A stretch of 24,000 nt of DNA from NCBI RefSeq assembly GCF_036967215.1, contig NZ_CP146016.1:1589337-1613336 (forward strand), read 5' to 3'. Positions 21,993-24,000 of the stretch are shown one piece after another (position 1 is the stretch's first letter; every line of letters begins with the position of its first letter). The notes under the pieces are model-generated. The model saw nothing but the letters and a program-made list of their open reading frames with translations. It had not been told where the DNA came from and did no database searches. A program made the translations under genes and the position numbers. This DNA comes from Sulfolobus tengchongensis. Lineage in GTDB: Archaea; Thermoproteota; Thermoprotei_A; Sulfolobales; Sulfolobaceae.

Positions 21993-22337
21993 AAATAACT
22001 ATGATTTCTACTCATAACCCTATATTGTGATATTTACTTGTTATCGAATTATGAAATTTCAGGGCGATTTGTTTCATATCTATACGACTGCACTGTGGAT
22101 ATACTCACTTACAATAAATGTAAAAAACTGCAATTTTCTACACTTCTACATTACTTATAAAACTAAAATTTTAATAATTATCTATTCGATATATTATGCA
22201 AATTATCTATAAAAGCTATTTATTCAATTTTATACAAATTTGACGCTCTCGAGAATAGTGGTTAAGATTAATACTTTGACTCTCACTAACTTCATCTCTT
22301 TTACCCCCATTAGAGTTAAAAACTAGCAAAAAGTGAT

Positions 22338-22408
22338 TTTTAGTCAGATGATTAAAGTGGCCAGGGCTGAAAGAAAAAGTGATGACATGTTTTTAAGATG
22401 AACTAAAA
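22338..22408 (+). ncRNA. Candidate C/D box sRNA
   Basis: C AUGAUUA (22348-54), 12-nt spacer, D' CUGA (22367-70), C' GUGAUGA (22379-85), 12-nt spacer, D AUGA (22398-401). The terminal stem TTTTAGT (22338-44) pairs with ACTAAAA (22402-08). The C position-6 G-to-U change is matched by the D position-1 C-to-A change. Confidence 0.55.
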
Positions 22409-24000
22409 TTGTAATTTGTATGTTCTACCTATCCAATAGCCTCTTTGAATTGCCTTACCTATAGTTGGTTGGTCATCCACAATATTGTGTATCTCAAGAT
22501 CGAATTTCATACCATTACTTTCTTCTATGAATTTAACTCCTGCTTGAGATAATGAGTTTCTTAACAAGTACTCTCTAGTTCTATCCAAACCCTTAAAAGA
22601 CCTTTCAGTCATGTAAACCTCATTATATTTGGCTAACTCGAACGCATAGTCGTGATATGCGTATATATTGGAGTCTATCAGGATTCTCTCTCCTTTAACT
22701 TCTGGCATTTTAGGTATTTCATAATCTGGTACTGCTAATATACAGTCCGAGCATTCCATCTTAGTGTTAAGTTTTATCTCGACGTTAAGTCTTCTTAATT
22801 CCCTTTCATAATACTTTATCAGTTCATTAAACTCATTAATTTTCCAAGGATCCTTAAGTAATAAGAATTGTCCACCTAATTTGTTGTTCTGCTCATATAA
22901 AGTTACGGTGAAACCTCTTAATGCTAAGACTCTAGCAGCCTCTAAGCCCATTACACCTCCTCCCACTACCGCGACCTCACCTTTTCCTTTTTCAAGAGGA
23001 GGTAATAACTCCCAACCTAATTCTGGATTAACATCGCATCTAACTTCCTTATACACTACACCTCTGCACGATTGGTTACACCTAATGCATGGCCTTATTG
23101 GTAAGCCCTTAATTGCCTTATTTAACCAATGAGGATCTGCTAATAATTGCCTTCCTAATACGACAACGTCAGCTACATCCCTAACCTTTAAGGCTTCCTC
23201 TGGAGTTATTATTGACCCTACAAGGAATAATGGAACCTTAATAGCGTCTCTTACGACTTTAGCGTATTCTAGGAAAGATACTCTTTTGTAATAATAAGGC
23301 ATGCTTGAACCCAAAGGACCATCTCTACCGGCAGATAAGTGAATGTAGTCTATCCCAGCTTTTTCCAATCTCTTACTTATCTCAGCTACCATTTCAGGGG
23401 TTAAGCCTTCATTGTCAAACTCAGTTACGCTAATCCTTATACCAACGGTAATCTTAGCCTTCTCCTTTATACTTTTAAGAATCTCCTCAGCGAACCTAAC
23501 TCCATCTTTATACTCATCCGCCCTTTTATTAGTAGCTGGTGAGAAAAATTGTGCCAATAAGTAACCATGTGCTCCATGAAGTTCTATTCCATCAAAGCCT
23601 GCTCTCTTAGCTCTTATTGACGCATTTACAAAATCGTTCTTCACTCTCTCTATATCGTCTTTTGTCATTTCTCTTACTTCATCCATTATTGGAATAGGTG
23701 AGGGAGCGATAGGTGTATTTCCCCAGATGATATCCCTTCTAGTTTTCCTACCAACGTGAACCAATTGTACGAAAATCTTACTTCCTAATGCGTGTATCAT
23801 CTCAGTTAATCTCATAAATTTTGGTGTCAATTCATCAGAATACATACCTAGTTCATTAACTGATCCTCTGGCATCTGTGCGATTAACGTAGGTATATTCA
23901 GTTATTATTAATCCAACTCCTCCTTTAGCTCTTTCAGCTAGATATGCTATATGGGCATCGCTCGGGTACCCCTCTGGAGTTCCTAAATTACTTATCATTG
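22403..24000 (-). CDS. Old-Yellow-Enzyme/2,4-dienoyl-CoA reductase-like NADH:flavin oxidoreductase with Fe-S Cys cluster and C-terminal FAD/NAD(P) domain; N-terminus beyond window
   Basis: TIM-barrel OYE motifs ([23 protein letters not shown]), [10 protein letters not shown]...C, and the Rossmann motif [12 protein letters not shown]. The ORF is open to the window edge. Confidence 0.85.

Follow-up and report, generated by a model that had tools for sequence, protein, structure and literature searches.

A conserved locus of Sulfolobus tengchongensis predicted to encode a dual-guide box C/D sRNA for 23S rRNA domain IV, with a putative U:A pair in its terminal kink

Positions 22348-22401 (plus strand) of the analysed window, a 24,000-nt stretch of the 2.77-Mb genome of S. 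tengchongensis (G000:C1:1589337-1613336), very probably constitute a gene for a dual-guide archaeal box C/D sRNA with predicted methylation at G1993 and A1942 of 23S rRNA. We put the probability of this reading, which is based on sequence comparison, at about 0.88. The following model for transcription, RNP assembly and methylation is what we infer from the anatomy of the locus, its target complementarity and its conservation. An sRNA of ~54-60 nt would be made from its own TATA-like promoter ~30 nt upstream, and L7Ae, Nop5 and fibrillarin would bind to two kinks, a terminal one formed by AUGAUUA and AUGA and an internal one formed by CUGA and GUGAUGA. The two 12-nt guides would pair with stretches of 23S domain IV that flank one hairpin, 51 nt apart, and the N+5 rule would direct 2′-O-methylation to G1993 through the D′ guide and to A1942 through the D guide. 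The terminal kink would keep its two sheared G.A pairs and its U.U pair, with the almost universal G:C at position 4b:4n replaced by U:A. The RNA is almost certainly an ordinary member of a well-known sRNA class with one unusual, conserved kink pair, and it leaves the understanding of box C/D RNPs unchanged. The elements of the locus, in order, are as follows.

22316-22322, plus strand: TATA-like A/T run TTAAAAA, putative own promoter, 26-32 nt 5′ of box C
22338-22344, plus strand: 5′ arm UUUUAGU of a 7-bp flank complementarity, probably without function
Between the UUUUAGU arm and box C, plus strand: CAG
22348-22354, plus strand: box C, AUGAUUA (consensus RUGAUGA, G6 changed to U)
22355-22366, plus strand: D′ guide AAGUGGCCAGGG, 12 nt, predicted target G1993
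22367-22370, plus strand: box D′, CUGA, canonical
22371-22378, plus strand: variable loop between D′ and C′, AAGAAAAA, 8 nt
22379-22385, plus strand: box C′, GUGAUGA, canonical
22386-22397, plus strand: D guide CAUGUUUUUAAG, 12 nt, predicted target A1942
22398-22401, plus strand: box D, AUGA (consensus CUGA, C1 changed to A)
22402-22408, plus strand: 3′ arm ACUAAAA of the flank complementarity, overlapping the stop codon of the convergent gene
22403-23998, minus strand: convergent flavoprotein gene (Oxidored_FMN and Pyr_redox), a neighbour outside the sRNA

The initial annotation had pointed to the box order and to a spacing of exactly 12 nt for both guides, and these hold letter for letter at 22348-22401, where AUGAUUA, 12 nt, CUGA, 8 nt, GUGAUGA, 12 nt and AUGA follow one another on the plus strand. 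The internal boxes, described there as canonical, are indeed CUGA and GUGAUGA. Each terminal box carries one substitution, and both keep their GA dinucleotides as well as the partner uridines U5 and U2. A relaxed motif, defined by at most one substitution per terminal box, canonical internal boxes, 12-nt guides and a loop of 3-10 nt, has four matches in the 2.77-Mb genome, 22348-22401 among them, and none in any of 10 second-order Markov genomes, so that the C/D arrangement lies far above chance. On the plus strand across the sRNA, the ORF list of the window contains no ORF of at least 40 aa. Two other parses of the site were considered and rejected: AUGAUUA as the C′ box of a longer sRNA beginning at GUGAUUU (22333) finds no fitting D′ box or 12-nt spacer, and for a minus-strand reading the box order fits nowhere on that strand. 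The features that place the RNA in the box C/D class are boxes C and D with their GA dinucleotides, internal D′ and C′ boxes separated by a short loop, spacers of ~12 nt, at least nine contiguous rRNA pairs around a Watson-Crick N+5 pair, and conservation in relatives.

The genome contains a single rRNA operon (C1:149336-154066). The D′ guide AAGUGGCCAGGG can form 10 Watson-Crick pairs and one G-U pair with 23S positions 1989-1999 (within UCCUGGCCACUG), and the C that lies five positions upstream of box D′ gives the N+5 pair C:G1993 (G1833 in E. coli). The D guide CAUGUUUUUAAG makes nine contiguous Watson-Crick pairs with positions 1940-1948 (within AAUAAAAACAUA). With the guide numbered from box D, positions 3-11 are paired, whereas positions 1 and 2, which adjoin box D, and position 12 are mismatched; the N+5 pair is U:A1942 (A1782 in E. 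coli). The E. coli numbers were obtained by 23S alignment and checked against the H69 pseudouridines 1911, 1915 and 1917. Both predicted targets belong to 23S domain IV and lie on the two sides of one hairpin, at a distance of 51 nt. When the guides were compared with rRNA and tRNA, 23S targets that obey the N+5 rule were found for both of them, and the best match to a tRNA was only 8 nt long.

For Pyrobaculum, a published prediction rule (PMC6009581) asks for nine or more contiguous pairs around N+5 and for a second guide that pairs within 100 nt; both guides of the present sRNA pair in this way. With shuffled guides (20,000 pairs), runs of 9 nt or more appear in 7.3% for the D′ guide and in 1.2% for the D guide, and both such runs within 100 nt of each other appear in just one pair (1/20,000, or 5e-5). 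Relatives with the D guide AAUGUUUUUAUU form 11 pairs with the same 23S target, and the relatives overall reach 10-11. The two stretches of 23S rRNA targeted by the guides do not differ among the 12 Sulfolobaceae genomes read, and because of this identity covariation between guide and target cannot be seen. Two concrete 2′-O-methylation sites in 23S domain IV are thus predicted. For the site equivalent to E. coli A1782, the 489 sRNAs of Dennis et al. 2015 include no guide, and neither the AUGUUUUUA guide nor its overlapping 9-mers match anything in that 489-gene list.

The D guide forms only nine pairs, its positions 1, 2 and 12 being mismatched, and the terminal kink is non-canonical at 4b:4n. 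These features also allow for a box C/D-type RNA in which a single guide half is active, or the main role of which is to chaperone rRNA folding by holding the domain IV hairpin at its two flanks; the variant kink, or a D duplex of 9 bp, would then be too weak to support catalysis. Targets that flank one hairpin are a layout discussed for chaperone-like sRNAs (PMC4644070), and in genus g5 a decayed D′ guide, with an 8-nt match elsewhere, stands beside an intact D guide. However, both N+5 positions hold a Watson-Crick pair, the nine contiguous pairs of the D guide reach the published prediction threshold (PMC6009581), and the guide cores are invariant, that of the D′ guide in two genera and that of the D guide in all three. 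We therefore regard such a division of roles as very unlikely, and methylation guided by both halves as the preferred reading.

The dual-guide sRNA has 15 homologues across three Sulfolobaceae genera, in differing gene neighbourhoods. BLAST of the region recovered the sRNA together with the 3′ end of the flavoprotein gene in five genomes of the same genus, and the sRNA by itself in a second genus; a sequence model built from nine copies gave further copies in another genome of the same genus and in a third genus. The search pattern TGANNNNATGTTTTTANNNTGA, in which the first nucleotide of box D was left free, matches in six of the seven genomes of the window's genus (g1), in all four of g8 and in all three of g5. 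There is one match per genome except in G004, which has two. The 33 genomes of 11 other genera contain no match, and neither does a reversed control pattern match anywhere. A scan of contigs with the exact pattern returned mostly random bacterial matches and one Sulfolobus MAG. The two copies of G004, L173 (G004:C1:1789233-1789254) and L184 (1914770-1914791), each adjoin a flavoprotein gene copy of their own, the proteins of which are 86-87% identical to that of the window; the copies represent a segmental duplication of the sRNA-flavoprotein gene pair.

Parsed side by side, the boxes of all 15 copies read AUGAUU(A/U) for C, CUGA for D′, NUGA(U/A)GA for C′ and AUGA for D. The first nucleotide of box D is A in every one of the 15 matches, although the pattern had left it free. 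Every copy has the same D-guide core, AUGUUUUUA, and those of genera g1 and g8 also share the D′-guide core GUGGCCAGG. Only guide positions 1, 2 and 12 and the loop differ between copies, and guide positions 2/3-11 do not vary; the loop has 3-10 nt of free sequence, and the guide spacers have 11-12 nt. In genus g5 the D′ guide of this family is a decayed 11-mer with an rRNA match of only 8 nt, located elsewhere, next to an intact D guide. Conservation in related Sulfolobales, which had been proposed as a check, is thus borne out at syntenic and non-syntenic Sulfolobaceae loci alike, where boxes and guides are kept. Together with the exact anatomy and the two N+5 targets in 23S rRNA, the conserved boxes and guides support the identity as a C/D box sRNA that was originally suggested.

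Terminal boxes that are both off consensus, an unremarkable fold energy and the lack of any Rfam family at threshold might be expected of a box-like sequence that arose by chance or is decaying without function, such as a pseudogene derived from an sR4-like gene. This is highly improbable in view of the 15 loci in three genera, which combine invariant boxes and guide cores with a free loop, and of the significant rRNA complementarity of both guides. Moreover, the TATA-like element is conserved at a fixed distance, and the locus is the sole carrier of the G1993 guide in the S. tengchongensis genome.

The sRNA gene would be transcribed from a TATA-like promoter of its own, to judge from the upstream sequence. 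An A/T-only, TATA-like run lies between -35 and -23 from box C in 15 of 15 copies. The centre of an archaeal TATA element is usually found at about -26/-27 from the start, and from this geometry and the TATA-like run a start is predicted at ~22344-22345, 3-4 nt before box C. In archaea, oligo-T tracts serve as terminators. The D guide (22386-22397) contains a T5 run on the coding strand of the sRNA, which might end some transcripts before box D. This run is invariant in the 15 homologues because the rRNA target is A5.

The initial annotation had described a 7-bp terminal stem that closes the molecule, and the complementarity between UUUUAGU (22338-22344) and ACUAAAA (22402-22408) is perfect over 7 bp, with only 0.7% of random genome positions offering 7-bp complementarity of the same geometry (P ~0.007). 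It is probably no functional stem that closes the RNA. It is kept in none of the 14 other homologues, in which the flanks pair in other registers and over no more than 3-5 Watson-Crick pairs (4-6 if G-U is counted). In addition, the 7-bp helix begins at -4:+1 and would leave a 5-nt bulge, as against 3 nt for a k-turn, with A:A at -2 versus +1. A standard k-turn C stem directly after a 3-nt bulge is thus absent, and no register is conserved among the 15 homologues. The 71-nt RNA folds no better than its shuffles (z = -0.09), and the 5′ arm lies at or before the predicted transcription start, so that it is likely untranscribed. The complementarity is probably fortuitous or lineage-specific and without a functional role.

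The 3′ arm does overlap the stop codon of the convergent gene, as had been noted, the codon being located at 22403-22405 on the minus strand. The S. tengchongensis flavoprotein has the C-terminus ...YKLQF*, and its stop codon lies 1 nt beyond box D (window 22403-22430). In most relatives of the same genus (compared: L003, L002 and L006), the protein ends in ...FKSY*, with the stop inside the D guide and an overlap of ~10 nt. On the minus strand the loop at 22371-22378 is a T5 run, ~27 nt after the flavoprotein stop codon. Loops of A4-A6 (T5-T6 on the flavoprotein strand) are present in all seven tail-to-tail copies, and the loops of copies elsewhere mostly differ (GCAGUA, UAUG, UAUU, AAG and GCU), with G055 as an exception. 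It may be that the free loop also provides the convergent flavoprotein gene with its oligo-T terminator.

It is scarcely credible, however, that the element merely serves this neighbour, as a 3′ UTR element, a terminator or a source of antisense RNA, and is no trans-acting guide. Such a role would account for the abutting stop codon, for its overlap with the sRNA in most same-genus relatives and for an A-rich loop that reads as a T5-T6 run on the flavoprotein strand, but it leaves the rRNA complementarity of the guides unexplained. The flavoprotein gene adjoins the sRNA in only 7 of the 15 copies, all in genus g1; it lies ~1 kb from the sRNA in G005 and is absent within 1.5 kb in g8 and g5. 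In the eight homologues without an adjoining flavoprotein gene, boxes and D guide are unchanged. Since only seven copies have this neighbour, the sRNA is conserved independently of it. A search for contigs encoding the flavoprotein found nothing.

As a guide RNA, the sRNA is related to a known family through one of its halves. At gathering thresholds the window has no Rfam match, and at E values up to 10 there are only sub-threshold C/D matches, the informative one being half of sR4 (RF01125). Positions 29-56 of the sR4 model cover its C′ box, D guide and box D, and their counterparts in the present sRNA are box C, the D′ guide and box D′; the alignment scores 15.3 bits over only 26 nt, against a gathering threshold of 50, and 16.7 bits in a whole-genome search. 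The sRNA shares one guide with Rfam sR4 yet falls outside the family. Its gene is a methylation-guide gene that has gone unannotated, and the 15 copies make up an sRNA family that Rfam lacks; the S. solfataricus orthologue may already have a name.

The likeness lies in the guide and its target. Sac-sR4 of S. acidocaldarius and Pca sR13 of P. calidifontis, both identified by RNA-seq (Dennis et al. 2015, PMC4644070), have the D guide AAGUGGCCAGG(U/G), which corresponds to the D′ guide here and has the same predicted 23S target, and sR4 is likewise a dual-guide box C/D sRNA for the same stretch of domain IV. In sR4, however, the shared guide occupies the C′-D half, whereas it occupies the C-D′ half in the window sRNA, and the terminal boxes of sR4 are canonical. 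The second guides differ too: where the present sRNA has CAUGUUUUUAAG, Sac-sR4 has GCACAUUCUUUU, and the sR4-like genes of other families in the order have GACACACCCUUU, which pairs with LSU 1966-1975, the hairpin between the two targets of the window sRNA.

True sR4 genes that score above the cut-off are present in three other Sulfolobaceae genera, and none of full length is present in the window's genus. One of them lies at G041:C1:2217111-2217166; since Dennis 2015 places Sac-sR4 at 2217167 on the negative strand, G041 is evidently S. acidocaldarius. The best sR4 matches in G003, G004, G007 and S. tengchongensis are the loci of the present sRNA itself, and 22348-22401 is the only box-flanked copy of GUGGCCAGG in the S. 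tengchongensis genome. Elsewhere in that genome, outside the window, there is a UUGAUGA at G000:C1:1879669-1879760 (plus strand) with GAAGACACACCCUUUU after it, a sequence similar to the D′ guide that sR4-like genes have in other families of the order; no recognisable D′ box or second half comes next. This site may be an sR4 remnant.

In genus g8 an sR4-like gene persists with a D guide that lacks one C (GUGGCAGGG vs GUGGCCAGG), and the intact G1833-equivalent guide is carried by the present sRNA. The sR4-like loci of g8 are L020-L023 (for example G024:C1:2468334-2468381, minus strand), and their D′ guide ACUCACCCUUUU tracks a g8-specific change in the 23S hairpin (GGGUGAGU vs GGGUGUGA). In these genes, one half looks to have covaried with its target and the other to have decayed. 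The G1833-equivalent guide is thus carried by different sRNA scaffolds in different genera. Duplication, drift and mobilisation of guides have been described by Dennis et al. (PMC4644070), and such switching between scaffolds fits that description.

The remaining peculiarity of the sRNA is its terminal kink. In the box C/D k-turn, position 6 of box C is the Watson-Crick partner of position 1 of box D, the two making up 4b:4n (PMC7994747). In archaeal box C/D k-turns this pair is a strongly conserved G:C, and G:C at this position impairs ion-induced folding (PMC5689011). The initial annotation had placed the two terminal deviations at positions that pair with each other, and G6 to U and C1 to A are precisely the 4b:4n partners (PMC7994747, PMC5689011). 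Its further claim, that the change is compensatory, is one that we infer from isosteric logic. U6 and A1 are fixed in 15 of 15 homologues from three genera, and because they never vary no covariation is seen that would prove the U:A pairing. Among 47 family genomes and 141 order genomes, no orthologue with canonical G6/C1 boxes was found. A genome scan that left both positions free yielded 14 candidates that match rRNA over 9 nt or more, in which 4b:4n is G/C twelve times, U/A once (the 22348-22401 sRNA) and a doubtful U/U once. As judged by these comparisons, the double deviation U6/A1 is unusual and clearly maintained. The scan also brought up, outside the window at G000:C1:783544-783597 (plus strand), a second box C/D-like candidate in which the terminal boxes are non-canonical (GUGAUUC ... 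UUGA) and the D guide has a 10-nt rRNA match.

That the fixed U:A is itself a selected feature, which alters folding of the terminal kink or recruitment of L7Ae and Nop5 beside a canonical internal motif, seems to us unlikely. If it were, the internal motif may be the primary site of assembly, or the RNA may have a circular form with two k-loops, and the rule by which a box C/D kink requires G:C at 4b:4n in order to stay unfolded until protein binds could be put to the test on this natural example. A natural U:A replacement at a strongly conserved G:C position is in any event useful for studies of k-turn folding, and the variant is relevant to sRNA gene finders that demand canonical boxes. Non-canonical K-motifs have also been published for those Pyrobaculum and Pyrococcus sRNAs, 3-11% of the total, that escape a covariance model.

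Compared with the canonical archaeal box C/D sRNAs, which have RUGAUGA and CUGA boxes and form an RNP with L7Ae, Nop5 and fibrillarin, the present sRNA has the same box order, 12-nt spacers, GA dinucleotides and U.U pair, the same canonical C′ and D′ boxes, two nearby rRNA targets and the N+5 geometry. It differs from them in two respects, namely U:A instead of G:C at 4b:4n and the lack of a conserved terminal (C) stem. For the first of these, Pca sR118 of Pyrobaculum calidifontis, identified by RNA-seq (Dennis et al. 2015, supplementary list, PMC4644070), offers a parallel: it starts with AUGAUUA and ends with AUGA, which gives U:A at 4b:4n. Its guides are, however, unrelated, and it belongs to another order (Thermoproteales), with no sign of common descent. 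Pca sR118 is, by analogy, a precedent for the kink variant only.
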